A stretch of DNA of 64,000 bases from Patescibacteria group bacterium (GTDB lineage Bacteria; Patescibacteriota; Minisyncoccia; Minisyncoccales; UBA5738), in assembly GCA_022710775.1 (NCBI GenBank), contig JAKLGH010000002.1, positions 12,707-76,706 of the forward strand, given 5' to 3'. Positions 2,124-59,068 of this stretch are shown in pieces; position 1 is the stretch's first letter; every line of letters begins with the position of its first letter. Below the pieces are notes generated by a model. It did not search any database and was not told the origin of the DNA. It worked only from the letters and a program-made list of their open reading frames with translations. The translations under genes were made by a program, and so were the position numbers.

Positions 2124-2204
2124 CAGGCTGAAACTGTTCGCGCCAACGCCAATTGATCCAAAAGATTCTGAAGCAACCGAAAATCCAGCTGATACCAGTA
2201 TTTT

Positions 2205-2229: not shown

Positions 2230-2255
2230 GACAAGCGGCGGTTTTTTAGTAGAAT
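2228..2255 (+). promoter_or_regulatory. Sigma70-like promoter (TTGACA-16 nt-TAGAAT)
   Basis: TTGACA at 2228-2233 overlaps the preceding T-run. TAGAAT lies at 2250-2255. Confidence 0.55.
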
Positions 2256-2833
2256 AGTTTTAGCAACTTAAAAAGGAGGTGAATACCGAACGCTATTATG
2301 GCTATAGCTATGGTCGTTGGCGCTTGAACTATTCCGCGAGTTTACCCCTCGTCCCGAACAGGGCTTGATCAAGCGGTTCCTTTATGGAACGGTAACTGCC
2401 AAGACTCCGCAAGGCTAGATGCTTTGCGTAAGCAGAGAGATAATACTTGGTTTTCATAGGAGGTGAAACAGAAGTAATGAAACATATTGCTTCCAGCAGC
2501 CGCACCATTACCGACGAGACGCCTTGAGCAGATTCCATTGTCTCTAAGAGGCAGGATGACATGGTGTTAACCTGGCTGTCCGAAAGGACGAAGCTCGATT
2601 GGGAATACCCATCTATTCCAGTTAGCGTTCTGGTTTTAAAAACGAAACACTGGAGGATATTCGGTTAATGAAGAAACTAGCCAGTTTCCCCGGCGGAGCC
2701 ATCTTATAGGCCAAAGTTGAGATGGCGATAATCCGTGGCACAGCTTAAAGAGATTTCGCCCTGCGCAGTTTTATTCCTGCCTTTCTGCCCAGGCATAAAA
2801 AGGCGGGAAGGGTCAAAGGAGGTCCCCCTGGTC

Positions 2834-2899
2834 ATGAGAAAAATGATAGCCGTACTGGTCATCATCGCGATGGCCGTAGTCGGGATGGCCGGCGCATAA
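2834..2899 (+). CDS. Candidate 21-aa hydrophobic micro-protein (MRKMIAVLVIIAMAVVGMAGA)
   Basis: AGGAGGT at 2817-2823 lies 11 nt upstream of the ATG. The peptide is a single TM-like stretch, and a strong terminator lies about 50 nt downstream. It is below the ORF-track length cutoff. Confidence 0.3.
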   Translation: MRKMIAVLVIIAMAVVGMAGA

Positions 2900-2947
2900 A
2901 TTGCTCACTCGCTTTATGAGGCTGTCTTTCACCGACACAAATTAAAC

Positions 2948-2973
2948 GCTGGTTAACAAGAACCAGCTTTTTT
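2948..2973 (+). terminator. Rho-independent terminator
   Basis: gctggtt-aacaag-aaccagc followed by TTTTTT. Confidence 0.7.
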
Positions 2974-3046
2974 CTTGGAATTTTTTCCTTATTTTTTTAA
3001 TCGATTCTAGCCATTAATCAATAAAGAGGTAATATAAGATATATCT

Positions 3047-4207: not shown

Positions 4208-4218
4208 TAGAATATATT

Positions 4219-5133
4219 ATGGATAATATTAAATTATTAGATTATTCAATATTAAACAAAGAGCAGGCTTTAGATCCCGCTTATATGTTTATTGAAAAGG
4301 ATAGAGATTTGCCTAAATACGTTGAAAAAACTAAAAAAATTAAAAATATTTTAATTGCTATTAAGGAGGTTTCCAATAAGAAAAGCTCGACCGAGGTTAT
4401 AGCTACTCTATTTGCAGATTTAAAAGAAAATTTGAAGGACTTTTCCCAATTCTCTGAGTTTAGTTGTTTCATTAACGCCTGCGATTCGAGCTTAAACTAT
4501 GCAACAATGAACGAGGAGCTATTAAAGAAAATTACCGCTTACTATTTGCAAAAAAGAGATTTAAATGAATTTGTACCTTCCGAATGGATACAAGCATTGA
4601 TAGACAAGACATCGTCTCGAAAAAAAGGGCAAGTTGGTGAAGTTAAGTTAATAAATATTCTAAAAAAAAGCGGATATTGTTATACGGAGAATTATTTAGA
4701 ATTTATTAAAGCTAAAAAATCTGTTGCTTGTTTTCGAAATGATTTTACTCTTAAGAATATAAAAAAGAATCTAAAAATTTCCATCGGTAAGGATACTCAA
4801 AGCAAAAAATTGGATTTATGCATAAAGAAGGGTAAAGAGATTTATTTCTTAGAAGCGAAACATGTAAACAATGAGGGCGGGGAACAAAACAAACAAGTAT
4901 TGGAACTGATTAAGATAATTCAAGAAAAAAATGCCAATAATCACTATCATTACGTAAGTTTTCTCGACGGATTATATTTCGATTTACTTTTTAAAAGTAT
5001 TATTTCAGTGCCAAAGAAAAAAAGTGGTGAAAATAAGTTACTAAAACAACAAAAAGACATTCGCAAAGCTTTAAAAAACAACAGGAACAACTATTTTGTT
5101 AATACTGCGGGTTTTAAAAAGCTTTTTGGCTGA
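4219..5133 (+). CDS. Putative cognate type II restriction endonuclease (PD-(D/E)xK-like)
   Basis: It lies 11 nt downstream of the methyltransferase and shares its AT-rich composition. A candidate catalytic motif is KLDLCIKKGKEIYFLEAKH (D...E-x-K). No other recognisable family. Confidence 0.55.
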   Translation: MDNIKLLDYSILNKEQALDPAYMFIEKDRDLPKYVEKTKKIKNILIAIKEVSNKKSSTEVIATLFADLKENLKDFSQFSEFSCFINACDSSLNYATMNEELLKKITAYYLQKRDLNEFVPSEWIQALIDKTSSRKKGQVGEVKLINILKKSGYCYTENYLEFIKAKKSVACFRNDFTLKNIKKNLKISIGKDTQSKKLDLCIKKGKEIYFLEAKHVNNEGGEQNKQVLELIKIIQEKNANNHYHYVSFLDGLYFDLLFKSIISVPKKKSGENKLLKQQKDIRKALKNNRNNYFVNTAGFKKLFG

Positions 5134-5280
5134 AGTCGTTAAAACGTTTCAAGTATTTTTCACAATTTGCTTAAAAGCCAGCCTCTTTCTTGCGTTCGGC
5201 ATGCTTGACGGAGGAATGGATTAAGGTATGATATAGCCGTTTTCGGAAATCAAGGCACGTTAAAAAATGTTGGAGGAAAT

Positions 5281-5823
5281 ATGGAAAACTGGATAACCAT
5301 CGCGACCCCGGGTTATTTGGGGGCGGAAAGGGATGTTAGATATAAAGAATGGGACGAAATATACGGAGAAGGGAACTGGCGCCTGGTTTGGGTGGTGAAC
5401 AAAACCTTAGTGGATTTTCTGGGCGCTTGCGCTCTTTACGAGGACGCATATTATCATTTCCTGAAAAAGAACTCCGCAATCGTAAAGAAACTGGTTTACG
5501 ATGCGCGCGATATCTACGACGATGCTCCATCCAACGTCGAATCGAGGTTCGACTACAATCACCAGGAAACGGGGCGAACCCATATCCAGGACATTGCGAT
5601 CCGACGGTGCATGGTTAGGATGGGGTTGTGGTTCATGGGCAACGATCTCATCCAGATCCGTTCAAGCGGGAAAGACGAACAAGTTTTAGGCAATATTCTT
5701 TCCCCCGGCAATGTGCCTTTCCATATGCCGTATCTTATCAGCGAATTTGAGCTAAGTGGCTGGTGGAAGCCAAAGAGCGTCGAAAGTTTTTACCAGTCGA
5801 ACCGGTTGTTCCAGATCCGTTAA
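5281..5823 (+). CDS. Hypothetical protein (180 aa)
   Basis: A clean ORF with the SD-like GGAGGA 7 nt upstream and a TTGACG-16-TATGAT promoter at about 5204-5231. No recognisable motif. Confidence 0.6.
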   Translation: MENWITIATPGYLGAERDVRYKEWDEIYGEGNWRLVWVVNKTLVDFLGACALYEDAYYHFLKKNSAIVKKLVYDARDIYDDAPSNVESRFDYNHQETGRTHIQDIAIRRCMVRMGLWFMGNDLIQIRSSGKDEQVLGNILSPGNVPFHMPYLISEFELSGWWKPKSVESFYQSNRLFQIR

Positions 5824-6065
5824 CCAAACGGATTTTTTTGTCCTTTTCCTTCAAACTTGAATAAATTCCTGTTTTATTGTATTAATTACTAGTTATCCGA
5901 TAAAGGTTGATCAGAGTTAAAACAATAATTATCTAATGAAAAAAATGCCAGCAAGCCTCAAAAAACACATTCGGAACGAAAAAGCCCGGATTCGCCGGGA
6001 TATATCGGATCTGGACCAGCAGAAGAAACTGATAGCCGACCTTACGAAAAAATATTCAGACAAAA

Positions 6066-10221: not shown

Positions 10222-11100
10222 ATGAGCGAAGCTATAAAAACGGAGCAGGCCAGGGCGGAAGGAAAACCATTGCTGATTTTAGCTATAAGCGCCGCTTTTT
10301 TTGCGATTTTGATGGCTGCCGGGATAATTTCGGTTAGCCATTTGGCCGGTACGGCCAGCGTTAAAGGCCTTGGAACGGCGAAAGTAAATGTGCAAAACTT
10401 CGTAGCCATTTTTATTTTGGCTACTTTAGGGCTTCTCCTTTTAATCTATTTTTTGAAAGTAAAAAAAATAAAAAGAGCGATATTTAAGATAATGTTTTTT
10501 TTGGCCGTTTTTGCCGGAACAGCGGTTTTTTTTAATGTTTGGGTAAGCCGGGCCATTGCTTTTCTGGCCGGGGTTTTCACGGCGGCAGTTTGGTGGGCGT
10601 ATCCAAAAATAGTGAGCCAAAACGCATGTCTTGCTTTTACGATGCTGGGGGCAGGAATTTTTCTTGGATATGTTTTCTTCCCCGGTTCCGCCGCGTTTCT
10701 TCTCCTGCTTTTTTCTTTTTACGACCTTATTGCCGTTTATGTTACCAAGCATATGGTCGCAATGGCTAAAGAAATGGTAGCTAACGGGGCTTTGCCCGCG
10801 GTTTTTATACCGATGAATTTATCGGGTTTGAGAGAGGATATCAACCGTATAGCGGCCGGAGGGGAAAAATTTCTGATTCTTGGCGGCGGAGACATTGTTT
10901 TTCCGCTATTTTTTTGCGTATCGGTGGCCAGGAATTATGGGACTTCTGCCGCCGCGCTTACGGCAGTTTTTTCCACTATTGGGTTTTGCGCCAGTTTCTA
11001 CCAATTTCTCAATCAAGGGACGCGCCGTCCGATACCGGCTTTGCCTCCGATAGCTTTATTTACATTAATAGGATACTCATTGGTTGTTTTTTTAAAATAG
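10222..11100 (+). CDS. Presenilin / signal-peptide-peptidase family intramembrane aspartyl protease (A22, GxGD type)
   Basis: A polytopic membrane protein with the three hallmark motifs in order: FSFYDLIAV (YD), ILGGGDIVFP (GxGD) and PIPALPPI (PAL). Its length of 292 aa is similar to the archaeal PSH. Confidence 0.75.
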   Translation: MSEAIKTEQARAEGKPLLILAISAAFFAILMAAGIISVSHLAGTASVKGLGTAKVNVQNFVAIFILATLGLLLLIYFLKVKKIKRAIFKIMFFLAVFAGTAVFFNVWVSRAIAFLAGVFTAAVWWAYPKIVSQNACLAFTMLGAGIFLGYVFFPGSAAFLLLLFSFYDLIAVYVTKHMVAMAKEMVANGALPAVFIPMNLSGLREDINRIAAGGEKFLILGGGDIVFPLFFCVSVARNYGTSAAALTAVFSTIGFCASFYQFLNQGTRRPIPALPPIALFTLIGYSLVVFLK

Positions 11101-11242: not shown

Positions 11243-11833
11243 ATGAGAAAAATTAAACCGTGGTTATTTTTAGCTGTCTGCCTATTAATTGGAGTGTTTT
11301 TTGCCTTGCCGGCGATAGCTTCAGGCTTGGTTCCCTGCGGCGGCTCCCAGCAGGAAGACTGTACGGTCTGCCATTTTTTCAAGATGACCAAAGAGATTCT
11401 TTATTATTCCTTGTCTCTGACCTTTTTAATTTCTTCGTTGATTTTCATTCTTTGCGGCCTTTATTTGATGGCGAACCGCGGCAATGTCCGGGTTGTTGCC
11501 AAAGTAAGGCAAGTTATGGGGGTAACGGTTGTTGGGTTGGTCATTGTTTTTTCCGGTTGGGTTGCCGTAAATACCTATTTTGTTTCAGCTGGAGCCGCGG
11601 AATGGGATGGATACAGCTTAAACAAAGATTGGTGGAAGATCAACGCAAAGTGCGAGAAGAACGACAGCGATCTTATTTTTTGCGGCGATGGCGATGTCCA
11701 ACCGGAAAACAATGAAGATTGCGATCCTAATGAAACAATTACCGATTGCCAGAAAAGGACTGGCAACACTGTGGACGAATGCGATCAGCTGATTTCCAAT
11801 TGCGATACGGAGAAGTGTATTGCCGTACCCTAA
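11243..11833 (+). CDS. T4SS-pilin-like (TrbC/VirB2-like, LVPCG family) protein with C-terminal Cys-rich repeat tail
   Basis: A signal peptide is followed by SGLVPCGGSQQEDCTVCHFF and two TM helices. The C-terminus carries CGDGDVQPENNEDCD-type repeats (Myxococcus cysteine-rich repeat style). Confidence 0.75.
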   Translation: MRKIKPWLFLAVCLLIGVFFALPAIASGLVPCGGSQQEDCTVCHFFKMTKEILYYSLSLTFLISSLIFILCGLYLMANRGNVRVVAKVRQVMGVTVVGLVIVFSGWVAVNTYFVSAGAAEWDGYSLNKDWWKINAKCEKNDSDLIFCGDGDVQPENNEDCDPNETITDCQKRTGNTVDECDQLISNCDTEKCIAVP

Positions 11834-20530: not shown

Positions 20531-21895
20531 ATGTTCTCAAAAAAAAGATCATTTGCCCTATTATTTTTGACAGCAACCCTTTTTTTATCAGGTTTTGCTG
20601 TTGTCGCGGCTGCCGGCGATCCGCTTGTTCCCTGCGGCGGTCCCGGCCAGCATGCTTGCACCATCTGCGATTTTTTTGAAATGACCCGGCGGGTCTCTAA
20701 TTATATTATTTTTTGGATTATACCGGTTTTGACCGCTTTTTTTCTGTTGATCGGAGGCGGTTACCTTATCTGGTCCAAAGGCGATCCCGCCGCGCTTGTA
20801 AGCTCTAAAAACGTCATTAAAGTAACGATAATCGGTTTCATAGTTATTTTTATAGGCTGGGTTTTCGTCAATACGATGTTTATGGTTCTGGGCATTGCCG
20901 AATGGGACGGTTTTAAACTTAACGAAAGCTGGTGGAAGGTGAGCGCCAAATGTTCTCATCATGAGGAATCAATCGAAGAGTGCGGCGACGGAATATGGCA
21001 GATCGGCGAAGGATGCGATCCGAACATGACTGTTCTGACCTGCCAGGGCCATGGCGGTTATTCGGTGGAAACTTGCAATGAAATAATCGATAATTGCGAT
21101 CCCGATACTTGCAAGTCCGAATATTGCGGAAACGGAGAAGTGGAGAGCGGCGAGGAATGCGATTATAACGAACCGCTCTGGCGATGCAAAAAAAGAAAGC
21201 CGTCTTGGACGGATAAAAAATGCCAGGACACGATTAACAATTGCAACGATGATTGCAAAATAATTGCCGAGGCGATCTGCGAAGCCGAAGATAAATCAAA
21301 AATCGGAAAGGGTTGCTGGCTGACAAACGATCCTTCCGACCGGGAAAAATACTGCCAAAGAGGAAAATACGTCTGCGAAGACGATCCAAGCTCTTCGAAT
21401 TTCAATAAAGTCGTTTGCAAGGGGATCAGCCCGAAAATCTACGACGAATGCTGTTTAAACGGCGGAGATAACCTTGATGATAAATCTTTTGACATAGTGA
21501 GGATCCGCGACTATGTAAAATTAGGGGTAGGCGGGGGATTGTTCGATATGAATCAGATGGTACCCTGCGAGAGCGCCTCGATCGACTGCGACACTATCTG
21601 TAAAGATAAAGGGAAAGTGTGCGTCGGCGTTGGACTGGCGAACTGGCAGAAGAATAAGTGCATTTACGTGATCCATCACGATTTCAACAATTGCAACTTG
21701 AGCCAGAATCTTGCCTCAAACGACTGCCGTTCAAAATATTGCATTACCAGTTACATTTGCTGCGAAGGCGGCGATAACTGCGATAGCAAGCTTGAGCCTT
21801 GCTGCAAAGGCACGATGACCGACCCGGCTTACGGGCCTTTTACCGGCAAAGGCGCGATGTTTAGCGTTGGAGAAACAGCTTGTTATTGCGAGTAA
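20531..21895 (+). CDS. T4SS-pilin-like (LVPCG family) protein with long Cys-rich C-terminal region; paralog of 11243..11833
   Basis: AGDPLVPCGGPGQHACTICDFF is followed by two TM helices and AEWDGFKLNESWWK, collinear with the 11243 protein. CGDG/CGNGEVESGEECD repeats follow, in an extension of about 300 aa containing many Cys. Confidence 0.75.
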   Translation: MFSKKRSFALLFLTATLFLSGFAVVAAAGDPLVPCGGPGQHACTICDFFEMTRRVSNYIIFWIIPVLTAFFLLIGGGYLIWSKGDPAALVSSKNVIKVTIIGFIVIFIGWVFVNTMFMVLGIAEWDGFKLNESWWKVSAKCSHHEESIEECGDGIWQIGEGCDPNMTVLTCQGHGGYSVETCNEIIDNCDPDTCKSEYCGNGEVESGEECDYNEPLWRCKKRKPSWTDKKCQDTINNCNDDCKIIAEAICEAEDKSKIGKGCWLTNDPSDREKYCQRGKYVCEDDPSSSNFNKVVCKGISPKIYDECCLNGGDNLDDKSFDIVRIRDYVKLGVGGGLFDMNQMVPCESASIDCDTICKDKGKVCVGVGLANWQKNKCIYVIHHDFNNCNLSQNLASNDCRSKYCITSYICCEGGDNCDSKLEPCCKGTMTDPAYGPFTGKGAMFSVGETACYCE

Positions 21896-21913: not shown

Positions 21914-23020
21914 GTGCTATCAAAAAATATGGAAGAAGAAAATTTTATCGAAGAGCTGGATAAAAAGAGGAGGATTTTCTATTACGGCGGAATCGCGGCG
22001 GTGGTTTTTTCCTTTTTGATCTTGTATATTTTTGTTATTGCCGATATGCTCGGCGGCAGATCTGGCTTGGATGAAGAGAAGCCCGGAAACGGCCAAGTTT
22101 CAGAGGTGGGCGAGGGGCAGGAGGACGGAATATATCACGTGGAAGTAAAAACAAAAGATGATTGCCTGGATATGGATGATAAAAATGAGAGCCGAAAATG
22201 TCTTGATAATATTGCTCTGGACAGCGCTATAGACGATAACCTTTTTTCAAAGTGTAACGATATCGGAAATGAAAGCCTTCGAAACGACTGTATGCACCAG
22301 GTTGCCCATAACCAGGAAAGCATAGCCCTCTGCTTAAAAATTTCCGATGAAGCGATCAAAAAGACATGCGTTAGCGATGTGGCGATATCGTTGAAGGATC
22401 CGAGCGTTTGCAGCGCCGCTTTCCGTGAATCTTTCGAATTGAAAGAATGCCGCGATGTCGCGACAGCCTTTACGATAGCTTACAGCGGAAAAAAAGACGA
22501 TATCGGAGAATGTGCCGCAATCGAGACCAAAGAATATTCCAATTTGTGTTTTTTGAATTCTTACGTTTCCAAATATGGCGGCGATTGCGAAAAGATTCCC
22601 TCGGCTTATCGGCAGTATTGTATTGATTATAAGGCGATGGAAGCGGCCGAAAATCCGGAAGATTGCGATGTTGTTAAAGATTCCAACTATAAGGAATATT
22701 GTTTGAAGGTGGCGGAGGTGGGAGCTATCGAGGCGCGTTACTTTGATACCGACGGCGACGGAATTACGGATGGTAACGAGCTGTTTATGAAAACCGATCC
22801 CAAGAAAGTTGATACCGACGGCGACGGGATTAATGACGGCGCCGAATGGATTATTCTTGGAATCGATCCCGGTAATCCGGATACCGACGGCGACGGTTTA
22901 AACGATTCCCAGGAAATGCAGGATTACCGTACAAATCCCAAGAATCCGGATACCGACGGCGACGGAAGAAACGACGGTTTAGAGGTAAAAATGAAGAGGA
23001 ACCCATTGACCAAAGACTGA
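21914..23020 (+). CDS. Membrane-anchored protein with Cys-containing repeats and four thrombospondin-type-3-like Ca-binding repeats
   Basis: An N-terminal TM segment (YYGGIAAVVFSFLILYIFVI). The C-terminus has 4x DTDGDG(I/L/R)(T/N)D motifs. The start is uncertain (GTG at 21914 or ATG at 21929). Confidence 0.65.
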   Translation: MLSKNMEEENFIEELDKKRRIFYYGGIAAVVFSFLILYIFVIADMLGGRSGLDEEKPGNGQVSEVGEGQEDGIYHVEVKTKDDCLDMDDKNESRKCLDNIALDSAIDDNLFSKCNDIGNESLRNDCMHQVAHNQESIALCLKISDEAIKKTCVSDVAISLKDPSVCSAAFRESFELKECRDVATAFTIAYSGKKDDIGECAAIETKEYSNLCFLNSYVSKYGGDCEKIPSAYRQYCIDYKAMEAAENPEDCDVVKDSNYKEYCLKVAEVGAIEARYFDTDGDGITDGNELFMKTDPKKVDTDGDGINDGAEWIILGIDPGNPDTDGDGLNDSQEMQDYRTNPKNPDTDGDGRNDGLEVKMKRNPLTKD

Positions 23021-45669: not shown

Positions 45670-46173
45670 TCAGGCGGTTTTTGATTTAACGTAGGTCGGA
45701 TAAAATATATTCGAGCCGTCGGACGCTCGCACCGATTGCCCGGTAGGTATTACTTCGCCGGATTCAATGAGCGGGGCTATCCCATTTAACATGACGGAAT
45801 ATTCGTCTTCTTGGAGCTGGCGAGCCAATTCGGGAATGGTGAATGGCATCTCGGGAAGCCCCTCCCTAACGCGTCTTAGGACGCGTTCCTGCTCGGCTCT
45901 TAACCGTTCTTCTACGTTTCTCAAATACTCGCGGCTTGAATATTGGGCCGACAAAGTTTCTTCCTCGGCCTTGAATCCAACAACGGCTATTTCGCCGCAG
46001 TTTAATAAGTAAGCGACGGCAATCGATGTTTCAAACAGATCTAGATGGTACAACTTCGCTAATTCGGAAACCGTGATTTTTTCCTGTTCGGTGATCTTGC
46101 TGGTTATCCATTGTTTTATAAGCCATGCCATTCGGCAATGGGTCAAAAAACCAAAGAGATTCATGCGTATCAC
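45670..46173 (-). CDS. Hypothetical protein with two winged-helix-like modules (167 aa)
   Basis: AGGAG SD. ITVSELAKLYHLDLFETSIAVAYLLNCGEIAV and FTIPELARQLQEDEYSVMLNGIAPLIESGEVI look like tandem wHTH units. Confidence 0.5.
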   Translation of the reverse strand: MIRMNLFGFLTHCRMAWLIKQWITSKITEQEKITVSELAKLYHLDLFETSIAVAYLLNCGEIAVVGFKAEEETLSAQYSSREYLRNVEERLRAEQERVLRRVREGLPEMPFTIPELARQLQEDEYSVMLNGIAPLIESGEVIPTGQSVRASDGSNIFYPTYVKSKTA

Positions 46174-46342
46174 TCCTATGCTTTAAAAGTTCTAAAAAAA
46201 GGCTAGCGCATTGAAGGCGAAAAGTAAAGCAACCAAGCGGTTATTTTGCCTTTTCAATAAACTATTTTAAGGTTTCACTTCGGGCCATTCCGTTCTGCTT
46301 GGGGCTAGCTTTCTTTCCCGTAGCAGAGCCGGCGGAATTAAC

Positions 46343-46366
46343 AAAAAAACTATCAAAATGATAGTT
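46343..46366 (-). terminator. Rho-independent terminator of the 46365..46859 cassette
   Basis: The minus strand reads aactatca-ttt-tgatagtt followed by T7. It overlaps the stop codon. Confidence 0.6.
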
Positions 46367-46859
46367 ATGCGATTTTAGAGGCTGCCAATTCAATTGTAGC
46401 TCTTTTTGTGTTTGGAACAAAAAATATTTTCCGGTCAGCTATAAGTTCTTCCAATGCTTCGTTAAAAAGACGTTTGCTTTCGTCGTCTGAAAGATCGAAG
46501 GGAAAGTTTTTCTTTAGTTTCTTGATCGAAACGGGTGAAGCTTTTTCCAGCCGATTTATTATGGCTGACTTCATGCCGAATTTTTTGCAAGCGTCGCGCA
46601 AGCTTGGAAGTGTGTAGCTTACTTCAAACGGGAGTGGACAGCCTCCTTTGTGGCGGCCACGGTAATGCTTTTGATAGGGAGCCATGATCATCCCAAGATC
46701 AACCATTGTTCGCAATACCTTGTATCCGTCGAAATCTATCAGTACTTCCATTCTTTCAATAAGGGCGCACATTTCTCCAATAGTTATTCCTTCAGGATGG
46801 GTTTCGAACTCTTTTCTTACCAGATCTCTAAGCTTCGGGTTAGAGGGAGTTTTAAACAA
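46365..46859 (-). CDS. Hypothetical protein with winged-helix-like modules (164 aa)
   Basis: A clean ORF. ITIGEMCALIERMEVLIDFDGYKVLRTMVDLGMI is wHTH-like. No family recognised. Confidence 0.5.
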   Translation of the reverse strand: MFKTPSNPKLRDLVRKEFETHPEGITIGEMCALIERMEVLIDFDGYKVLRTMVDLGMIMAPYQKHYRGRHKGGCPLPFEVSYTLPSLRDACKKFGMKSAIINRLEKASPVSIKKLKKNFPFDLSDDESKRLFNEALEELIADRKIFFVPNTKRATIELAASKIA

Positions 46860-46884
46860 AGGCCTTGTTTTTTTAGCGGAGGAG

Positions 46885-46954
46885 TTATTTTTTATTGGTT
46901 TCGCATTCTTTGTTGGAGCATTCTTCCGCCGCCGCGGAGCGGTTTGACCTTCAA
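46885..46954 (-). pseudogene. Relic duplicate of the topA 3' end (last ~23 codons, indel/frameshifted)
   Basis: 46903-46954 (gcattctttgttggagcattcttccgccgccgcggagcggtttgaccttcaa) aligns with topA 47654-47704 (gcattccttgtttgagcatttttctccgccgcggagcggtttgaccatcaa). There is an exact 21-nt core. The relic would encode KVKPLRGG..ECSNKECETNKK* versus the TopA C-terminus MVKPLRGGEKCSNKECSQLDYQKKI*. Confidence 0.65.
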
Positions 46955-46991
46955 TATGCCTTGCTTAAAATAATAGCACCCAATGCGGGTG

Positions 46992-47495
46992 CTAAGCGAA
47001 GCGTTTTTGCGCCAAAATGCTTGTAAATTCTTTATCTCCGTATGCTTTAAACATTGCGATTGCTTTTTCGTAATCTTTCGGTTCTTTGCAAAGGCTCAAG
47101 ATCCTCATTTTTAACTTGGCAGAAAGAAAATGCTCTCTATTGTTTCCTTTTGCCGTAAAGTACCTGTATATCTGCATTGCAAGACTGGGGGTAAAAATAG
47201 GGTCCCATTCTGGTAATTGGAATTCGTAACCATTGATTGATCTATCCAGTACCAGCGTGAGGCATTCGTCAAGATCGGCCGATTCGATGAACTTGGACAG
47301 TTTTTCGATAATTATCCGCTTCGAACTCGATTTTTCCCACAGGTTCGATTTTTCCCTCGCAAAAGCATTTGCAAGATCCACGCATTCAACGGCTGTTTTT
47401 CTTTTGAAAAATCCGGCATTGAACAGCGAATCCATTGATAGCATTGCCAAACCCATTCCTTCGTTTTTCGCAATTCTGGCAAATTCACTTTCCAT
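46992..47495 (-). CDS. Hypothetical protein (167 aa), cargo of the cassette bounded by the topA 3'-end repeats
   Basis: A clean ORF, with a TTGACA-17-TATTAA promoter readable on the minus strand at about 47540-47585. No family recognised. Confidence 0.5.
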   Translation of the reverse strand: MESEFARIAKNEGMGLAMLSMDSLFNAGFFKRKTAVECVDLANAFAREKSNLWEKSSSKRIIIEKLSKFIESADLDECLTLVLDRSINGYEFQLPEWDPIFTPSLAMQIYRYFTAKGNNREHFLSAKLKMRILSLCKEPKDYEKAIAMFKAYGDKEFTSILAQKRFA

Positions 47496-47623: not shown

Positions 47624-49768
47624 TTAAATCTTTTTTTGGTAATCAAGTTGAGAGCATTCCTTGTTTGAGCATTTTTCTCCGCCGCGGAGCGGTTTGACCA
47701 TCAAAGAACCGCAAGTCGGACACTTGACGCCGGTGGGTTCGTCCCATAAGGCGAAATCGCAATTCGGGTAATTGGAACAGCCGTAGAAAGTTTTTCCTTT
47801 CTTTGTCCGTTTGGTTACAATATTCCCGGTCTGGCATTTTGGGCATTTGACCTCTATTTTCGGTTCGCCGTTCGCCTGCGCGATGGTTTCGGTGTATTTG
47901 CATTCAGGAAAAGCGGAGCAGGCGTAAAACTTTCCAAAGCGGCCCATGCGCGTAATAACCAACGCGCCGCATTTGGGGCACACTTTTCCGGTCACTTCCT
48001 GGACGAGCCCTTTTTTCTCCACGTTCTGGTATTTATCGGCGAGGTTTTTCGCGAACGGATCGTAGAATTCGCGCAGGACGCCGATCCAGTCTTTTTTCCC
48101 TTCGGCGATATCGTCGAAATCTTCCTCCATTTTGGCGGTGAAGCCGGCATCGACAATCTGGGAGAAATGCTCGACCAAAATGTCATTCACCATGAAACCC
48201 ATTTCCGTAGGCTTGAACGATTTTTTTTCGTCCTTTTCGATGTAGCGCCGCGTTTGGATCGTCGAAATGATGGGCGCGTAGGTCGAAGGGCGGCCGATCC
48301 CGTGCTCTTCCAACACCTTAATGAGAGTTGCTTCGGTGTATCTTGCCGGCGGCTTGGTTTGGTGCTTGGTCGAGTCCAGTTTTAAAAATTCCAAAAGCTC
48401 GTTTAGTCCCACTACGGGAAGATCGACCTGTTCGAATTTAACGTCGTAAATTTTCAAAAAGCCGTCGAATTTCAACGTTTGGCCGGTGGCACGGAAACCG
48501 TATTTTGAGGCGCTTTGGCCGGCGGTTTTGGCGGCAATGTCGATGCTGGCCGAATCGAAGACCGCCGGACTCATCTGGCAGGCGATGAAACGCTTCCAGA
48601 TCAGTTCGTAAAGTTTTGATTGAGATCCGTTCAGGTTCTTTTGGTCTTTCACGGCCTCGGGCGTACTGGCCGGATCCGTTGGGCGGATCGCTTCGTGCGC
48701 TTCCTGGGCAAGCTTCGCTTTGGTTTTATAGCGCGTGTATTGGCCGGGCCAGTAATTCGCGCCGCAATTTTTTTCTATGTAATCCTTGGCCGAGGCTACC
48801 GCTTGGTCGGACAGGTTCAAGGAGTCGGTGCGGTGGTAGGTGATCAAGCCGACCTCGTAAAGCTGTTGGGCCAGTTGCATCGTAAATTTGGCTTGGAAAT
48901 GGAATTTTTTCCAAGCTTCCTGCTGCAAAGTTGAAGTGGTAAACGGGGGAAGGGGATTGCGCTTGGTTTCCTTTTTTTCCAGATTTGCCACACGGTATTC
49001 GGCTCCGGCAAGTTCGTTGACGATGGCATCGGCTTGTTGCTGTGTTTTGATTTCGAGTTTTTCGCAGGCTGTTCCGTCGATCTTATTGAGGCGGGCGGCG
49101 AATTCTTTAAAAGGTTTAAGCCGGGTGTTTTTCAGAAGTACTGTGATTTCCCAATAATCCTGGGGCACGAATTTTTCGATCTCACGTTCGCGTTCCACGA
49201 CCAGGCGCACGGCTACGGACTGGACGCGTCCGGCGGACAGCCCTTTAGCCACTTTTCTCCAAAGGAACGGGGAGAGCTTGTAGCCGACGATGCGGTCCAG
49301 TATCCGGCGGGCCTGTTGGGCGTTGACCAGGCTTTCGTTGATTTTGCGGGGATGTTTGATGGCCTCTTCAATCGCGGTTTTCGTGATTTCGTGAAATTCG
49401 ACGCGCTGGTAGGGTCTGGCCGCCTTTGGCGAGCCTCGCCCTTGGCGGGCTGTTTTGCTTGTCGAATCGTTTTTTAATTTTAAAGCTTGCACCAAGTGCC
49501 AGGCGATCGCTTCTCCTTCGCGGTCCGGATCGGTCGAGATCAAAACCGAATCGGCTTTTTCCAGCTCTTTCTTGATGTCGGAGATCCGTTTTTTGGCCTT
49601 GACGGGAATGGCGTATTTTGGTTCGAAGTCGTGTTCCAGATCCACGCCAAAAGCGTGCTGGGGCAAATCCCTCACGTGTCCGTAGGACGAAATGATTTTG
49701 TAATCGGAGCCCAAAAATCCTTGCAAGGTCCTTGCTTTAGTCGGGCTTTCAACGATAACTAAGCGCAT
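47624..49768 (-). CDS. topA: DNA topoisomerase I
   Basis: TOPRIM N-terminus (LVIVESPTKA, DPDREGE), an active-site region (ITYHRTDS), and three C-terminal CxxC...CxxC zinc ribbons. Confidence 0.97.
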   Translation of the reverse strand: MRLVIVESPTKARTLQGFLGSDYKIISSYGHVRDLPQHAFGVDLEHDFEPKYAIPVKAKKRISDIKKELEKADSVLISTDPDREGEAIAWHLVQALKLKNDSTSKTARQGRGSPKAARPYQRVEFHEITKTAIEEAIKHPRKINESLVNAQQARRILDRIVGYKLSPFLWRKVAKGLSAGRVQSVAVRLVVEREREIEKFVPQDYWEITVLLKNTRLKPFKEFAARLNKIDGTACEKLEIKTQQQADAIVNELAGAEYRVANLEKKETKRNPLPPFTTSTLQQEAWKKFHFQAKFTMQLAQQLYEVGLITYHRTDSLNLSDQAVASAKDYIEKNCGANYWPGQYTRYKTKAKLAQEAHEAIRPTDPASTPEAVKDQKNLNGSQSKLYELIWKRFIACQMSPAVFDSASIDIAAKTAGQSASKYGFRATGQTLKFDGFLKIYDVKFEQVDLPVVGLNELLEFLKLDSTKHQTKPPARYTEATLIKVLEEHGIGRPSTYAPIISTIQTRRYIEKDEKKSFKPTEMGFMVNDILVEHFSQIVDAGFTAKMEEDFDDIAEGKKDWIGVLREFYDPFAKNLADKYQNVEKKGLVQEVTGKVCPKCGALVITRMGRFGKFYACSAFPECKYTETIAQANGEPKIEVKCPKCQTGNIVTKRTKKGKTFYGCSNYPNCDFALWDEPTGVKCPTCGSLMVKPLRGGEKCSNKECSQLDYQKKI

Positions 49769-50624
49769 AGATGTTTTCTCCCAAATCCCGTACCTTTCCT
49801 TTGATTTCGAGGACGGGAAGAAGGCTTAAGACTTTTACTGCCGGCAAGCCGGTGGCTAAAATTATTTTGTCGACTTCCAGCGCGCCTTCGCGCAATGATT
49901 TTAATATCATGACTTCTTCTTTGCTGCCTTCGGGTTCTGTTATGCCGTCCAGAGCAAGCTGGGAGCCGACGCCGATCTCATCTAAAATGTCTTTGGCGTT
50001 CCGGGCCAGGATCGCTCCCTGCCTGATCAGCTCATTACAGCCTCGGGAGTTAGTCGAATAGACGGAGCCGGGAACCGCGAAAATCTTTTTCTTTTGTTTT
50101 CGCGCCCACCCGGCGGTTATCAGCGATCCCGATTTTTCCTTGGCTTCGATTATAACTACGGCAAGCGATAATCCCGAGATTATCCGGTTGCGCTTGGCAA
50201 AAGTAAATCTTGCTCCATGCGTGCCCGGCGGACATTCGCTGACCAACAGGCCGCCGCAGTCCAGGATATTTTCGGATAGCGCCACGTTAGTCTGGGGATA
50301 AATGCTCTTTTTGTCAAGGCCGGTGCCAAGGACGGCGATCGTCCGCGCTTTGTTTTCAACCGCCGTTTTATGGGCAATGGTGTCGATACCGGGAGTCAGT
50401 CCGGAAACAATGACGATTCCGGCTTCCACCAGCCCTTGGGCGATGTTTGAAGCAGCCAGCTTTCCGTAATCCGAGCACATTCTTGTTCCGACGATTGCCA
50501 CTCTGGTTTCTTTGGCTGTCATCCGCCCGGCGCAATAAATGGTTTTTGGAGGCTGGGGGATCGACCGCAGTTCCGGGGGATATAATGTATCCGTTAAATT
50601 GATAGTTTCTATTATGTTGGGCAT
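49749..50624 (-). CDS. dprA: DNA processing protein DprA (Smf)
   Basis: VAIVGTRMCSDYG...VSGLTPGIDTIAHK...GSLITA pattern. dprA-topA synteny is present, with a 20-nt overlap. Confidence 0.85.
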   Translation of the reverse strand: MPNIIETINLTDTLYPPELRSIPQPPKTIYCAGRMTAKETRVAIVGTRMCSDYGKLAASNIAQGLVEAGIVIVSGLTPGIDTIAHKTAVENKARTIAVLGTGLDKKSIYPQTNVALSENILDCGGLLVSECPPGTHGARFTFAKRNRIISGLSLAVVIIEAKEKSGSLITAGWARKQKKKIFAVPGSVYSTNSRGCNELIRQGAILARNAKDILDEIGVGSQLALDGITEPEGSKEEVMILKSLREGALEVDKIILATGLPAVKVLSLLPVLEIKGKVRDLGENIYALSYR

Positions 50625-52444: not shown

Positions 52445-53002
52445 ATGAACAATACCGTAACGAGTACCCTGGTTTTTTTTATCGAAGTCGCTAAAATAGT
52501 GATCTTGGCTTTTGCGATAGTAGTACCGATCAGGTATTATTTGTTCCAGCCTTTCGTTATTCAGGGTTCTTCGATGGAGCCGAATTTTCATCAGGCCGAT
52601 TATTTAATTGTCGATGAATTCAGTTACCGTCTGCGGGCTCCGGAGCGCGGCGAGGTTATTGTTTTCAAGTATCCCTTGGATCCCAGCAAAAGGTTCATCA
52701 AGCGGATAATCGGCTTGCCCGGGGAAACCGTGGAAACGGAAGGTGGAAAGGTAATCGTTTATTCAAACGAGCGAAAATTTGTGCTGGACGAATCGGCTTA
52801 TCTGTCCGCTGACCTGAAAGTTCCGGATATGAGTCCGATCACTTTAAAAGACGGCCAATATTTTGTTCTTGGCGATAACCGATCTTATTCTTATGATTCT
52901 CAGGATTGGGGGGAGCTCGCCGCGAGCGATATCATTGGAAAAGTGGCATTTCGGCTTTGGCCGATCAATACCGTTCAGAAAATATCGTCTCCGACTTATT
53001 GA
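52445..53002 (+). CDS. lepB: Signal peptidase I
   Basis: An N-terminal TM segment, then GSSMEPNF (catalytic Ser), RGEVIVFK, KRIIGLPGE and GDNRSYSYDS boxes. Confidence 0.85.
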   Translation: MNNTVTSTLVFFIEVAKIVILAFAIVVPIRYYLFQPFVIQGSSMEPNFHQADYLIVDEFSYRLRAPERGEVIVFKYPLDPSKRFIKRIIGLPGETVETEGGKVIVYSNERKFVLDESAYLSADLKVPDMSPITLKDGQYFVLGDNRSYSYDSQDWGELAASDIIGKVAFRLWPINTVQKISSPTY

Positions 53003-55247: not shown

Positions 55248-55646
55248 GTCGGGAAATTCAGTTGCCGGAATGATCCGAGGCTTTTTGGCGGGGCATATGT
55301 TATAATATACCAATGCGGTTTAGTGGCCGGGTAGTGATACGGGAATGCGCGGAAGGCTGAACGGCAAGGAAATAATATTTTTTGAAATTATATGAACGGT
55401 CAGAGCCTAAAAACAAAAACCTGCCCTTGTCGGTTTATGCTGGCTATTTTTTTAGCTTTGACCGTTTTTGCGGCACTTATCGTATTTTTTAAACGCTGAT
55501 TAAATTATCGGCCTTTGGACCCTTTTTGGGAATTAATTAACAAGGGCTCGCAAGAGAACATTTTTCGGTTTCCGCCGAAGCCGAACCTCTGAAGGCGGGA
55601 TCACGAAATTAAAGAAATATAATTTTGACCCGAACCAAGAATTCCA

Positions 55647-56297
55647 ATGGCATTTTTTGCGTTAAAAACATTTGTAAGTAAATTGGCCGGCAGACGGACG
55701 CGGATGATTTTTTGGATGATTTTTTTTGCTATGGTCGCGGCCGGGGGTTATTTTTCTTGGAATTTCATCGAAGCCGAGCCGATAGAAGCCGAAGATGAGA
55801 TTAAAAAATGGAAGGTTTTATCCGAGGATCGTTTCGGTTTAAATATGGATTATCCGTCAAATTGGGATATCCGGCAGGATTATGACAAATACGCGGCAGG
55901 ATTGATGAATGTTGACCTTAACAATAAAAAAAACGGCTCCGGAGCCGAATGCGGATCCCGATACGTCGATCTTAGGATTTTTATCGGAAACAAGCCCGAG
56001 AGCGGTGCAGAAAATTCCGGAAGCGATCTTTTAAGCCAGCTTTATCGGGAAATCGAAATGATCAAGAATTCCGGGAATGATGATTTGGTGGAAAGCATGA
56101 AGATAGAAGGGAAAAGCGCTTTCAAGATCAAATCGGATGCCCCAACGCTTTCGTTGAACGGGCGTTGTCCCGGCCCGCTTTATCTTGTGGATACAAAGAA
56201 CTCATTCATTTATATATTTGCCGGAACGGGAAGCGAGGCCAGAGAAACCGGAGAGAAGGCGGTTGAGAAGATTATTGCCTCGATCAATATTGATTAG
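55647..56297 (+). CDS. Secreted/membrane-anchored protein, paralog 1 of a tandem family
   Basis: An N-terminal TM segment (IFWMIFFAMVAAGGYF), then KKWKVLSEDRFGLNMDYPSNW, the family's W-x-x-(Y/L)-x-x-x-x-(Y/F)G(F/L)-x-x-x-(Y/F)P box. Confidence 0.65.
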   Translation: MAFFALKTFVSKLAGRRTRMIFWMIFFAMVAAGGYFSWNFIEAEPIEAEDEIKKWKVLSEDRFGLNMDYPSNWDIRQDYDKYAAGLMNVDLNNKKNGSGAECGSRYVDLRIFIGNKPESGAENSGSDLLSQLYREIEMIKNSGNDDLVESMKIEGKSAFKIKSDAPTLSLNGRCPGPLYLVDTKNSFIYIFAGTGSEARETGEKAVEKIIASINID

Positions 56298-56538
56298 GCG
56301 ATTCAGAGCCGAAATTGCGCCGGTTCTATGGCCTATGCTCGATTGAAACAGTTTATCTTTACGGAATGGATCAATGCGGGGAAGATCGTTAAAATCATGC
56401 TCCTAACAGCTAGGCAATTCCGATGGCGGACGGCAGCTTTCAAGTTGCCGGCATTTCAATTAAAATATAACAATAGAGAAAAAATCAATAATCAAATCCC
56501 GAATATTTTATTGGGGAAAATTAAAAAAAATAAAAAAA

Positions 56539-57102
56539 ATGAAAAATCAAAGCGGAATTTCGACGTTGGCAGTAGTTATTATCATAGTATTGATCATTTT
56601 AACTGCGGTTGTGGCACTTTTTGTTTTCGGCAATTTAAACAAGGCCGATGATAAAACAGGCGGCGAATTGCGGATAAAAGATGCCAAAAATTCCGCGACC
56701 GAATGGAATGTTTACCGGAACGACCAATTCGGTTTTGAGTTCAAGTTTCCCGGAAACGCGACGGTTAACGATGCTTACCTCGACAACAAGTATGCTTTCG
56801 CGGTTGGAGTCACTTCGAAAAATTGGAATGACGGCGTTGTGGCTGTAATTAACCACGGGAATGTCGGAACCATGACGTTTTCAGAATTTGTGGCTAAAGA
56901 CCTCCAGGACCAGGGAGATTCCGGCGCGTCGGTAAAAGAAGTTAAATTCAACGGTTATGATAGCGTTTTCGTGAGTGGAAAGAATAAATCAGGCTATTAT
57001 TTGTTGCGCAAACTCGATGTTTACGAAGTGTCTAAAACTTCCCCGGTTACGGCCGACGAGGCTGACAAGATATTTGCCTCGTTTAAATTCATCGAACAGT
57101 AA
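56539..57102 (+). CDS. Secreted protein, paralog 2; class III (prepilin-like) signal-like N-terminus
   Basis: MKNQSG/ISTLAVVIIIVLIILTAVV N-terminus, the EWNVYRNDQFGFEFKFP box, and the C-terminal IFASFKFIEQ. Confidence 0.7.
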   Translation: MKNQSGISTLAVVIIIVLIILTAVVALFVFGNLNKADDKTGGELRIKDAKNSATEWNVYRNDQFGFEFKFPGNATVNDAYLDNKYAFAVGVTSKNWNDGVVAVINHGNVGTMTFSEFVAKDLQDQGDSGASVKEVKFNGYDSVFVSGKNKSGYYLLRKLDVYEVSKTSPVTADEADKIFASFKFIEQ

Positions 57103-57148
57103 AGATTGAATGCCTCGCGCAAGCGGGGCATTTTAATTAAACATTAAT

Positions 57149-57787
57149 ATGAATTTCAAATTAAATAATCAGGAAGGCTTGTCGCCAGCTTTTGTTTTAA
57201 TTACGGCAGCGGCTATGATTTCTTTGACCGGTTTCACGATCAAATACGTAAATGACAGCCAGAAAGAAATAGACGATGAAATATCTTATCAGGAAGACCT
57301 GATCGCAAAAAGCAATGTGGATATCATCAAGGAAAGCGCGGCCAAAGAAAAGAGTGGCGAGACGGATAAAACCGCGGATTGGCAAACGTACCGGAACGAG
57401 GAGTACGGGTTTGAGCTTAAGTATCCGAAAGAGTGGGCAATAGCTAAAAACAGCGAGGAAATTGTGTCGATTGGCGATCAAGCTTCGAATTCCGGATTTC
57501 ACATCGAGGCTTTACCGAACAAGGGAAAATTACCGTTTGACCAATGGTATAAGCAAGAAGTGTCTAGCGGAAATAACACCGGATACGAATCTAAAAAAGT
57601 AATTATCAATGGGAGCGAAGCAGAAGTATTTGATACGGTTTTTCACGCGATTAACACGCATAGCGTTGAAGGCCTGGAAGCATATTTAGCCGGCCAGGAT
57701 GATATAATCCACATAGTTGCCGGCGGCCATGGAACAAAAACCATCTTCGACCAAATGCTTTCCACATTCAAGTTGATCGAACAATAA
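57149..57787 (+). CDS. Secreted protein, paralog 3; class III (prepilin-like) signal-like N-terminus
   Basis: MNFKLNNQEG/LSPAFVLITAAAMISLTG N-terminus, the DWQTYRNEEYGFELKYP box, and the C-terminal MLSTFKLIEQ. Confidence 0.7.
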   Translation: MNFKLNNQEGLSPAFVLITAAAMISLTGFTIKYVNDSQKEIDDEISYQEDLIAKSNVDIIKESAAKEKSGETDKTADWQTYRNEEYGFELKYPKEWAIAKNSEEIVSIGDQASNSGFHIEALPNKGKLPFDQWYKQEVSSGNNTGYESKKVIINGSEAEVFDTVFHAINTHSVEGLEAYLAGQDDIIHIVAGGHGTKTIFDQMLSTFKLIEQ

Positions 57788-57829
57788 GATTAGCAAACCC
57801 TCGCTTAAGGTGGGGGTTTTATCAATAAT

Positions 57830-59068
57830 ATGTTCCAACTAACTAACCAAAAGGGAGTTTCGCCGGTTTTTGCCCTGTTGACGATCGTGGCCGCGCTTTC
57901 GGTGACCGGTTTTACGATCAAATACGTAGATGACGGCCAGAGGGAGGTAGATGAAGAAATAGCCCGCCAGGAAGACCTGACCGCAAAAAGCAATGTGGAC
58001 ATCATCAGGAAGGACGCGGCTAGGGAGAAGCAGGGAGGAGAAGGAGAAATCGCTGATTGGCTGACCTATCGCAACGAGGAATATGGATTTGAGATAAAGT
58101 ATCCCGTTGGATTTATCTTCGAAGAAGCAAAATATCCGGCCCAATTTAATCAAACAATAACAAGAAAAGAAATCAGTTTTTATTCCCCGGGAGAATTGAA
58201 AGGGGAGGAAAGGTCTGCGTTGGCTCTGATAATTGATAAAGAACCGACAACATATGCGTTTCATGGGACGTGGGCTGTTCTTCCGTATTCAAAAGCGGAC
58301 AGTATAAAAATGCTTCGATCGCAAGAAATCAATATAAACAATGCTCTTTTCAGCAAAGATTATTGGACGGAGGCAATTTCCGCTCATACGAAAAAAGACC
58401 AATATTATTACTCGCTTGTTTTAGGAATCGATAGCCAAGATAACAGGAATCAGAAAACAGAAATTTTTGGCCAGATTCTTTCCACCTTTAAATTTATTGA
58501 TCCGAGCGTTCAGGCAACAAGCTGGACGGATTGTTATTTTGATCCGGTTTCTAATTTTCCTGGTGATAAGCGCAGTTTATTATGCGCTAACGGCCAGGAT
58601 AAGAAGACGGTTATTATCGATGTAAATGATTGGTTGGGTTGGGACACAGAAAAATTTTTCCCTTTGAAGGTTGTATTTTATCCGAAAACCCAGGAAATTT
58701 TTTTCGTTAAATATTATATAGACAGTGATGTATCGCTTGGTTTTTTTGCCCTGAATACTGGTACTTTAGAAATTAGAGAGTTGCCTAACGCGGGGCGCAT
58801 ATACCAGAATTACAATAATTACTTTAGTATCATCTCTCCCGATCGTGGCAGAATCGCATCGATTGGCAATGCTGATATTTATCTATTGGATCTCGCGTCG
58901 GATGGAACACAAGTGATTATTACCGCAAAGCAGGGCGAAATATTCAATCCTGCTGGCGGACAGAAAAATTCCAAATGGTTTGACGATAAAACATTGCAAT
59001 ACGAGGTTTATCGGGAAGGAGGCATGGAAAACCCTCCACAAATCAGAAAGATTACGGTCAATTACTAG
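57830..59068 (+). CDS. Secreted protein, paralog 4 with an extra C-terminal domain; class III (prepilin-like) signal-like N-terminus
   Basis: MFQLTNQKG/VSPVFALLTIVAALSVTG N-terminus, the DWLTYRNEEYGFEIKYP box, and an internal ILSTFKFIDP followed by about 190 additional aa. Confidence 0.7.
   Translation: MFQLTNQKGVSPVFALLTIVAALSVTGFTIKYVDDGQREVDEEIARQEDLTAKSNVDIIRKDAAREKQGGEGEIADWLTYRNEEYGFEIKYPVGFIFEEAKYPAQFNQTITRKEISFYSPGELKGEERSALALIIDKEPTTYAFHGTWAVLPYSKADSIKMLRSQEININNALFSKDYWTEAISAHTKKDQYYYSLVLGIDSQDNRNQKTEIFGQILSTFKFIDPSVQATSWTDCYFDPVSNFPGDKRSLLCANGQDKKTVIIDVNDWLGWDTEKFFPLKVVFYPKTQEIFFVKYYIDSDVSLGFFALNTGTLEIRELPNAGRIYQNYNNYFSIISPDRGRIASIGNADIYLLDLASDGTQVIITAKQGEIFNPAGGQKNSKWFDDKTLQYEVYREGGMENPPQIRKITVNY

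Follow-up and report, generated by a model that had tools for sequence, protein, structure and literature searches.

A tandem array of PsbP_2-family proteins, probably tethered to the cell membrane, in a Patescibacteria genome

We analysed a stretch of 64,000 nucleotides (the window) from contig JAKLGH010000002.1 of a Patescibacteria group bacterium (assembly GCA_022710775.1), in which a sequence-only reading had pointed to a tandem array of four secreted paralogues. The four open reading frames (ORFs), here called g1 to g4, are all present and follow one another on the + strand. The first, g1 (55647..56297, 216 aa), encodes a divergent relative of the others with an ordinary N-terminal anchor, RRTRMIFWMIFFAMVAAGGYFSWNF. 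The g2 product (56539..57102, 187 aa) consists of a leader, MKNQSG (56539..56556), an uncharged anchor helix of 24 residues, ISTLAVVIIIVLIILTAVVALFVF (56557..56628), a short linker and one PsbP_2-type domain. In g3 (57149..57787, 212 aa), the leader MNFKLNNQEG (57149..57178), which has Glu at -2 and a net charge of about 0, precedes an uncharged anchor helix of 21 residues, LSPAFVLITAAAMISLTGFTI (57179..57241), with Pro at +3; a charged, amphipathic helical stalk beginning KYVNDSQKEIDDEISYQEDLIAKSNVDII (57242..57367) leads from there to a single PsbP_2 domain, the predicted PsbP/Mog1-fold ectodomain (57368..57784). The largest gene, g4 (57830..59068, 412 aa), repeats this plan with the leader MFQLTNQKG (57830-57856), the helix VSPVFALLTIVAALSVTGFTI (57857-57919), a stalk (57920-58045) and a PsbP_2-type domain (58046-58504), and adds a beta-rich C-terminal domain (58505-59065). 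The quoted starts of g2, g3 and g4 are in each case the earliest start codon that the ORF offers, and their N-termini are the only ones of their kind in the six frames of the window. Proteins identical to g2, g3 and g4 are recorded under a Candidatus Paceibacterota bacterium metagenome-assembled genome. The host is bacterial, as the window encodes FtsA, FtsZ, YbeY, ribosomal protein S21, HisRS, LepB, a D-Ala-D-Ala carboxypeptidase, DprA and topoisomerase I.

Two motifs had been ascribed to all four genes, a tryptophan-led box and a C-terminal signature. In g2, g3 and g4 both are found; the box reads exactly as described, WNVYRNDQFGFEFKFP in g2 (nt 56704-56751), WQTYRNEEYGFELKYP in g3 (57380-57427) and WLTYRNEEYGFEIKYP in g4, and the second motif reads IFASFKFIE in g2 (57070-57096), MLSTFKLIE in g3 (57755-57781) and ILSTFKFID in g4. 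In g1, both are degenerate, the box being WKVLSEDRFGLNMDYP (from nt 55809, +) and the last strand IIASINID (+). The second motif is also not C-terminal in g4, where it lies internally at aa 216-224 and is followed by the beta-rich domain of 187 residues. Domains of this extra type are inserted between PsbP-like domains in the related proteins P0039-P0042.

The domain of g3 belongs to the Pfam family PsbP_2 (PF18933), which it matched at 29.2 bits against a gathering score of 27 bits, and g2 aligned to the same model at 20.7 bits, below that score. Relatives of these proteins are annotated as PF18933 under the NCBI name 'PsbP-related protein'. In the family alignment, a first strand, DWQTYRNEEYGFELKYP (DWxTYRNEEYGFExKYP), and a last helix and strand, IFDQILSTFKFIE (IFxQILSTFKFIE), are conserved family-wide, and the region between them is hypervariable and unalignable. 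The two reported motifs correspond to the opening and closing strands of PsbP_2, so that what they mark is membership in a known family of very large size. The resemblance greatly exceeds what chance would give. The genes g1, g2 and g4 were tied to this family by alignment, by a hidden Markov model (HMM) built from the family alignment A3 and by hhalign: g4 matches this HMM and carries the box, and g1 aligned to A3 with a probability of 91.5% over 58 columns, which cover the anchor and the first strand only. The array proteins thus resemble their relatives in having an N-terminal anchor, the box of the first strand and the motif of the last, although the Pfam model alone does not capture the divergent g1 and g4, and g4 adds its second, beta-rich domain. 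We conclude that g1 to g4 are new members of the catalogued PsbP_2 family, and we hold this assignment, together with a tethered topology, with high confidence.

The family is large and its tandem arrangement is not peculiar to this genome. When the g3 domain without its N-terminus was used as a phmmer query against 1.84 billion representative proteins, at least 3116 clusters were matched at E<=1e-3, many of which carry the domain 2-6 times over. Scanning a single genome for each species yielded 377 confirmed family loci; among the 80 that were listed, nearly all came from the candidate phyla radiation (CPR, or Patescibacteria) by record title. Rows of 3-6 family genes are common in other CPR genomes, as at loci L005, L069, L067, L076, L074 and L060, and the tandem arrangement of g1 to g4 is typical for the family. 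The array is one ordinary example, and PsbP_2 may be among the largest families of surface proteins in the CPR.

The fold of the head was approached with structure prediction. AlphaFold2 modelled g3 as a helix (residues 13-68) followed by a beta-rich domain. Foldseek searches of the PDB placed PsbP/CyanoP structures first (2vu4, 1v2b and 2xb3; probability 1.00, E ~1e-5, TMt 0.58-0.62), and further matches were BT_1490, PA94/EagT6, Tsi3, Apa, Mog1 and DcrB. The PsbP/Mog1-fold structures compared (2vu4, 1v2b, 2xb3 and 2lnj; BT_1490, 3hlz; PA94, 1tu1; EagT6, 6xrf; Tsi3; Apa, 5zx9; Mog1, 5yfg; DcrB, 6e8a) share the fold of the g3 model at E values of 1e-5 to 1e-2 and TMt of 0.45-0.62. As modelled, the head of g3 is a PsbP/Mog1 fold, an alpha-beta-alpha sandwich. 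When PDB sequences were searched with a family profile, nothing matched at E<=1. Sequence identity to the PsbP/Mog1-fold structures is 9-17%, and the array proteins are N-terminally anchored in a host without a photosystem, so that a common function should not be assumed. The model of g4 was poor and its C-terminal part was all-beta; Foldseek again found CyanoP, together with weak matches to beta-propellers at a TM of ~0.2. In both models, the anchor runs into the stalk as one continuous helix of ~56 residues, and alignment shows the stalk to be conserved in g3, g4, P0002, P0004, P0005 and P0038. The earlier view of the proteins as exported paralogues with a globular head is supported.

Among 228 full-length family members, an N-terminal hydrophobic helix is nearly universal and a lipobox takes its place in about 10, so membrane attachment by any means is the common denominator of the family; relatives with a lipobox are, for example, P0013, P0032 and P0034. 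The linkers between anchor and domain vary and may be Pro/Glu-rich, Cys-rich or a helical stalk. The four array proteins have no lipobox, there being no Cys within the first 40 residues of any of them. The lifestyle of CPR bacteria is one of attachment to other microbes, a contact that their surface proteins and type IV pili presumably mediate. We suggest, at slightly better than even confidence, that g1 to g4 are a tandem array of membrane-tethered extracytoplasmic PsbP_2 proteins that act as surface binding modules. The single uncharged helix of 21-24 residues would target each protein to the Sec translocon and would then stay in the membrane as an N-in/C-out anchor, which would expose the domain at the outer face of the cell membrane, the organism having no outer membrane. 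In g3 and g4, the charged helical stalk of ~40 residues may keep the domain off the membrane. The domain itself would have no enzymatic activity and would serve as a scaffold for binding, as other PsbP/Mog1-fold proteins do, and duplication, module exchange and the gain or loss of genes such as g4 could diversify its binding surface. By analogy, a non-enzymatic binding module with a diversified core is most likely, because of both the fold and the pattern of variation, and a diversifying binding surface fits a cell-surface role in an episymbiont.

Several points weigh against this proposal. The term 'binding scaffold' is an analogy with the fold relatives. The confidence of AlphaFold2, as the predicted local distance difference test (pLDDT), was moderate for g3 (67) and low for g4 (59.7), and g1 and g4 have no Pfam match of their own. 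The remaining points concern the leaders, which resemble those of real CPR pilins and in which the Gln at -3 and the Gly at -1 are invariant in 15/15 close orthologues. Such invariance is more than a plain anchor needs and speaks for recognition of the leader in some form.

The three N-termini quoted in the sequence-only reading, MKNQSG/ISTLAVV, MNFKLNNQEG/LSPAFVL and MFQLTNQKG/VSPVFAL, read exactly so, and their layout is real, with a polar leader of 5-9 residues, a Gly and then 21-24 uncharged residues without Glu5, the residue at +5 being A in g2 and F in g3 and g4. Nine orthologues of g2 with 41-82% identity were found, and N-Q-x-G is kept in all nine. In these orthologues, down to 41% identity, Q(-3) and G(-1) never change although the helix does, and the same two residues are invariant before a variable helix in 6/6 proteins of the g3/g4 group. 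The g3 orthologue P0002 has the leader NDQKG, and the consensus before the helix in 51 such N-termini of the family is (N/K)(Q/N)KG. A leader of the form xxQKG is equally the classical leader of bacterial type IVa prepilins.

These features suggest another explanation, the idea of the sequence-only reading transferred to a bacterial setting, in which NQxG is a class III prepilin-type signal and the bacterial prepilin peptidase PilD (Peptidase_A24) cleaves after the Gly on the cytoplasmic face. The mature proteins would begin with I/L/V-S-(T/P) and, being Glu5-less, would be non-polymerising, low-copy or tip subunits of a pilus with a PsbP-like head, for which the Glu5-less minor pilins of PilX/GspK type offer a comparison. 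Alternatively, they would be PilD-dependent, membrane-anchored surface proteins, as in Sulfolobus, where class III sugar-binding proteins carry a non-pilin head behind a class III signal, an archaeal precedent. We regard PilD processing as less likely than not. It is favoured by the polar, Gly-ended leader that directly abuts the uncharged stretch, by the invariant Q-3 and G-1, by the (N/K)(Q/N)KG consensus, and by the continuous anchor-stalk helix in the g3 and g4 models. PilD and type IV pili are also widespread in the CPR (PMC6744442), and a tip pilin of Saccharibacteria has a non-canonical signal peptide and a beta-propeller (PMC11623550).

The conservation of the leader is less telling in the wider family. 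The sequence-only reading had proposed the conservation of Gly-(I/L/V)-S in homologues as a test, and the motif is kept in close orthologues but not across the wider family; in an unbiased sample of the family, a Gly junction at the start is found in only ~10-15%, and the others have ordinary anchors or lipoboxes. In ~1 Mb of CPR DNA, a class-III-like start was seen in 12/107 (~11%) anchored family members and in 9/235 (3.8%) other anchored proteins (p=0.013), an enrichment that we treat as weak, the test including the three window genes that prompted it and ignoring paralogy and relatedness. P0234 (MFKK-ISTPIAIG) lacks the Gly, yet it is close to P0045 (MWKYLNKG-ISTPIAIS). Other subgroups have leaders that are equally conserved without a Gly junction, namely MPF(I/L)TQGKTNWKF, AFSKIW and KPEKTISLSNLP. 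The conservation of the leader, once considered as proof of a cleavage site, was downgraded for this reason.

Conserved leaders of further types recur in PsbP_2 proteins across genomes, as MPF(I/L)TQGKTNWKF(L/I), M(N)(Q/K)AFSKIWI, MQNKTK.PEKTISLSNLP and MKKE(S/P)LS.MTVKTLL. The proteins with conserved leaders include P0016, P0021, P0048, P0056, P0058, P0060, P0070, P0082 and P0085, as well as P0163, P0193, P0211, P0217 and P0237. Conserved cytoplasmic leaders thus suggest sorting or recognition signals in the exported proteins of the CPR.

Comparison with pilins also speaks against cleavage by PilD and against the earlier description of the products as pilin-like subunits. The N_methyl models (PF07963 and TIGR02532) gave no match at E<=1 for g2-g4 or for 34 similar N-termini of the family, and PilX_N (PF14341, gathering score 25.5 bits) gave none for g2-g4. 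With Pilin_N (PF07790, gathering score 25.2 bits), g2 scored 17.5 bits over its full length and 19.7 bits over its first 60 aa, and there was no match for g3, g4 or 31 other such N-termini. When the pilin models of Pfam and NCBIfam were run on the 34 class-III-like N-termini, only matches at noise level appeared (FliL, UpsA at E=0.028, GspG and others). The head is of a predicted PsbP fold and no pilin occurs among the top 50 fold matches of g3. There is no Glu5, and a Pro stands at +3 in g3 and g4. The array starts have I/L/V at +1, S at +2 and P/T at +3, unlike type IV pilins, with which they share the short polar leader, the terminal Gly, the Gln at -3, often a Lys at -2 and ~21 uncharged residues. 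This likeness is greatest for the Glu5-less pilins of PilX/GspK type, and those in CPR operons look similar to the array N-termini. In contrast to such pilins, the array proteins are without an N_methyl or PilX_N match, without a pilin fold and outside any pilus locus.

The machinery that cleavage by PilD would call for was sought around the array. No PilB, PilC, PilD, PilM, PilN or PilO and no pilin was found in Pfam scans of the ~45 ORFs of the window, and no pilus gene was found in the ~7-10 kb past each window end (flanks of ~17 kb, ~81 kb in total), which hold ComEC, NrdD and glycosyltransferases. Pilus loci were likewise missing beside three other class-III-like members of the family (0/3). 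Among the 80 CPR loci, a pilin operon lies within 10 kb of a family gene only at L043 and L075, which is about the level expected by chance on a rough estimate. Three ORFs of ~165 aa on the minus strand at 45670-47495 were considered as pilins and rejected, as they have no transmembrane start and belong to no family.

The operons at L043 (9901-13821) and L075 (3803-6958) are compact minor-pilin operons of other CPR genomes, each with three pilin genes and with starts of the form G/(F,Y,V)-x-(L,I)-(I,V)-E. PsbP_2-family genes occur near both operons, at a distance of less than 100 nt on the upstream side at L043 and of ~3 kb on the downstream side at L075; this proximity is probably coincidental. 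Four of the six pilins in the two operons pass the N_methyl gathering score, and the canonical CPR leaders here are ...NSSG/FTLIE and ...QQKG/FTLLE. In each operon, the three genes are followed by a large Glu5-less pilin, of 594 aa at L043 and 413 aa at L075, and the Glu5-less starts are RG/FAAII and QKG/FAALF. The latter, L075:5717-6955, served as a positive control and scored 30.6 bits with PilX_N, the gathering score of which was passed in L075 only. These leaders from real pilin operons, including Glu5-less ones, are similar to those of g2-g4 and count in favour of PilD.

The genes of DNA uptake bear on the same question. DprA lies in the window at 49749-50624 (-), and ComEC (Competence and DUF4131 domains) lies at L081 4350-5861, ~4-6 kb past the right window end. 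DNA-uptake genes are thus present whose products usually act together with type IV or competence pili, which is a further point for PilD.

Cleavage by signal peptidase I is a third way in which the N-termini could be processed. The helix would then be an ordinary Sec signal peptide, cut by LepB at a small-x-small site inside or after it, such as TAAA/M in g3 or VAA/L in g4, and soluble PsbP-like proteins would be released. A LepB (Peptidase_S26, 146.9 bits) is encoded at 52445-53002, 2.6 kb upstream, and AAA in g3 and VAA in g4 do lie within the hydrophobic stretch. However, 21-24 uncharged residues are long for the h-region of a Sec signal, and the g3/g4 group conserves the helix segment that follows the putative sites (SLTGFTIKY), which makes it probable that the distal helix is kept. 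By inspection, the g2 orthologues have no conserved small-x-small site past the helix, and the relatives with a lipobox imply a tethered rather than a soluble function. We consider release of this kind, and cleavage of g2-g4 by signal peptidase I in general, improbable.

For the leaders we therefore favour the tethered arrangement with different degrees of confidence for its parts. That the NQxG leader is not clipped at all seems to us an even chance. Clipping by PilD is the less likely course, though one to be taken seriously, and it would leave the protein still anchored. A broader claim is that a subset of PsbP_2 proteins of ~10-15%, including g2-g4 and defined by N-Q-x-G/(I,L,V,F)-(S,A)-(P,T,S) without Glu5, are non-pilin substrates of PilD and would be either interchangeable heads of type IV pilus tips or a PilD-dependent surface layer; we put this forward as a speculation that is rather unlikely to hold as a whole. 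If it were true, these proteins would be a bacterial counterpart of the archaeal 'bindosome' proteins with class III signals, and an episymbiont could vary what its pili present to hosts. If the NQxG leader of this subgroup proved to be a PilD site, a non-pilin fold would join the known substrates of bacterial prepilin peptidases and the family would be linked to pili. A prepilin-like leader on a non-pilin fold was described in no paper that we found and would be a noteworthy variant if confirmed.

The sequence-only reading had called the signals archaeal-style and had named a GxGD protease at 10222 as the candidate processing enzyme, and neither proposal is supported. Carried to its end, the idea would be that g2-g4 are archaeal-type pilins or archaellin-like proteins acquired from archaea and processed by the peptidase of ORF 10222-11100, which we judge extremely unlikely. 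In its favour, KG/VSPV of g4 resembles the archaeal KG/(V/I)SP(V/I), and archaeal class III signal proteins (Pilin_N, archaellins) have in common with the array a G/(I,L,V)-S-P start and the lack of Glu5. The weak Pilin_N match of g2 may also be counted here, as may the Joint Genome Institute (JGI) pipeline, which names the g2 orthologue P0241 'FlaG/FlaF family flagellin (archaellin)'. The Pilin_N match is nevertheless below the gathering score and has no parallel in g3 or g4. A FlaFind-type rule asks for K/R at -2, G/A at -1 and hydrophobic residues from +1 to +3 ahead of a transmembrane helix, and of these the K/R at -2 is found as K in g4 only, g2 having S and g3 having E. The host is bacterial, the domain family is overwhelmingly from CPR bacteria, and the head is neither a pilin nor an archaellin fold. 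P0241 is 73% identical to g2 and has the same archaeal-looking N-terminus, and its archaellin label rests on equally weak grounds.

The enzyme at 10222-11100 (+) is a GxGD intramembrane protease of presenilin/signal peptide peptidase (SPP) type. SPP (PF06550) was its only Pfam match at E<=1e-3, at 44.9 bits against a gathering score of 23.9, and the motifs YD (FYD), GGGD (LGGGD) and PAL (PALP) are readable in it. Its only NCBIfam match at E<=1 was the model of the archaeal presenilin homologue PSH (NF041679), at 60.6, below the equivalog cut-off of 125; that its best match is an archaeal model is the last point on the archaeal side. The ORF thus resembles the presenilin/SPP family in Pfam score and motifs but lies below the equivalog cut-off. 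Enzymes of this class cut inside membrane helices, whereas class III leaders are removed by Peptidase_A24 enzymes (PilD, FlaK, PibD), to which this one does not belong. The gene is kept in the related contigs L082 and L083 and lies 45 kb from the array. Presenilin/SPP enzymes cut helices of N-in/C-out orientation, which is the orientation of the g1-g4 anchors, and nothing links the two here. The main import at present is that the array proteins are neither archaeal-style nor pilin-like and that the GxGD enzyme is of the wrong class.

The similarity of g3 and g4 had been taken as a sign of recent duplication. The nucleotide identity over the first 100 codons is just 69%, with a range of 47-84% per 15-codon bin, and the proteins are only ~24% identical beyond that point. 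This low identity therefore points to a conserved N-terminal module and not to a recent duplication. The module, made up of leader, helix and charged stalk, occurs in proteins P0002, P0004, P0005 and P0038 from other metagenomes, and in P0004 an N-terminal module like that of g3 is joined to a body resembling that of g4. The unit that g3 and g4 have in common takes in a hairpin upstream of each gene. The locus L084 (4514-6639) of a related genome has g1, g2 and g3 followed directly by ybeY, and g4 is absent; the array therefore differs in gene content between close relatives. The g3 orthologue of L084 is 88% identical in a neighbourhood of lepB, hisS, S21, yqeY, g1, g2, g3, ybeY, ftsA and ftsZ, and its g1 orthologue has the same length and position. 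It looks as if an old, conserved N-terminal module has been maintained with gene flux in the array.

In the g2-g3 spacer, a GC-rich hairpin followed by AUUUUAAUU lies at 57104..57138 (+; RNAfold -19.2 kcal/mol), and the g3-g4 spacer has a GC-rich hairpin followed by UUUUAUC at 57795..57819 (+; -14.4 kcal/mol). The two can be aligned and are homologous, each with a U-run after it. The g2-g3 hairpin resembles an intrinsic terminator; it was absent from the output of a simple terminator scan, and the simple scan for promoters and terminators found nothing that exceeded the shuffled expectation. Rfam and tRNA scans gave no match within or adjoining the array, and no Rfam family was found in the 450-nt gap upstream of g1. 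This gap contains a small hydrophobic ORF of 35 codons, MNGQSLKTKTCPCRFMLAIFLALTVFAALIVFFKR, at 55392-55499 (+), and in L084 a gene of 36 residues is called at the equivalent place (4384-4494).

Some other features of the window may be recorded. The ORFs at 11243-11833 (+) and 20531-21895 (+) encode paralogous Cys-rich membrane proteins without a Pfam match. They share a signal peptide, LVPCGG...C(T)(V/I)C(H/D)FF(K/E)MT, two hydrophobic helices and ...AEWDG(Y/F)(S/K)LN..WWK(I/V).AKC, and they may resemble the type IV secretion system (T4SS)-pilin-like proteins common in the CPR. Directly after the second of them, the ORF at 21914-23020 (+) encodes a protein with a membrane anchor, a middle part rich in Cys and, at the C-terminus, calcium-binding repeats of the bacterial thrombospondin type 3 (TSP3) family (PF18884, 73 bits). 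Positions 2001-6000 of the window form a low-GC island (35-39% vs ~46%). Here the ORF at 3047-4207 (+) is methyltransferase-like, with an NPPY motif and no Pfam match, and that at 4219-5133 (+) encodes a DpnII-like restriction endonuclease (PF04556, 24 bits); the two are probably a mobile restriction-modification pair.

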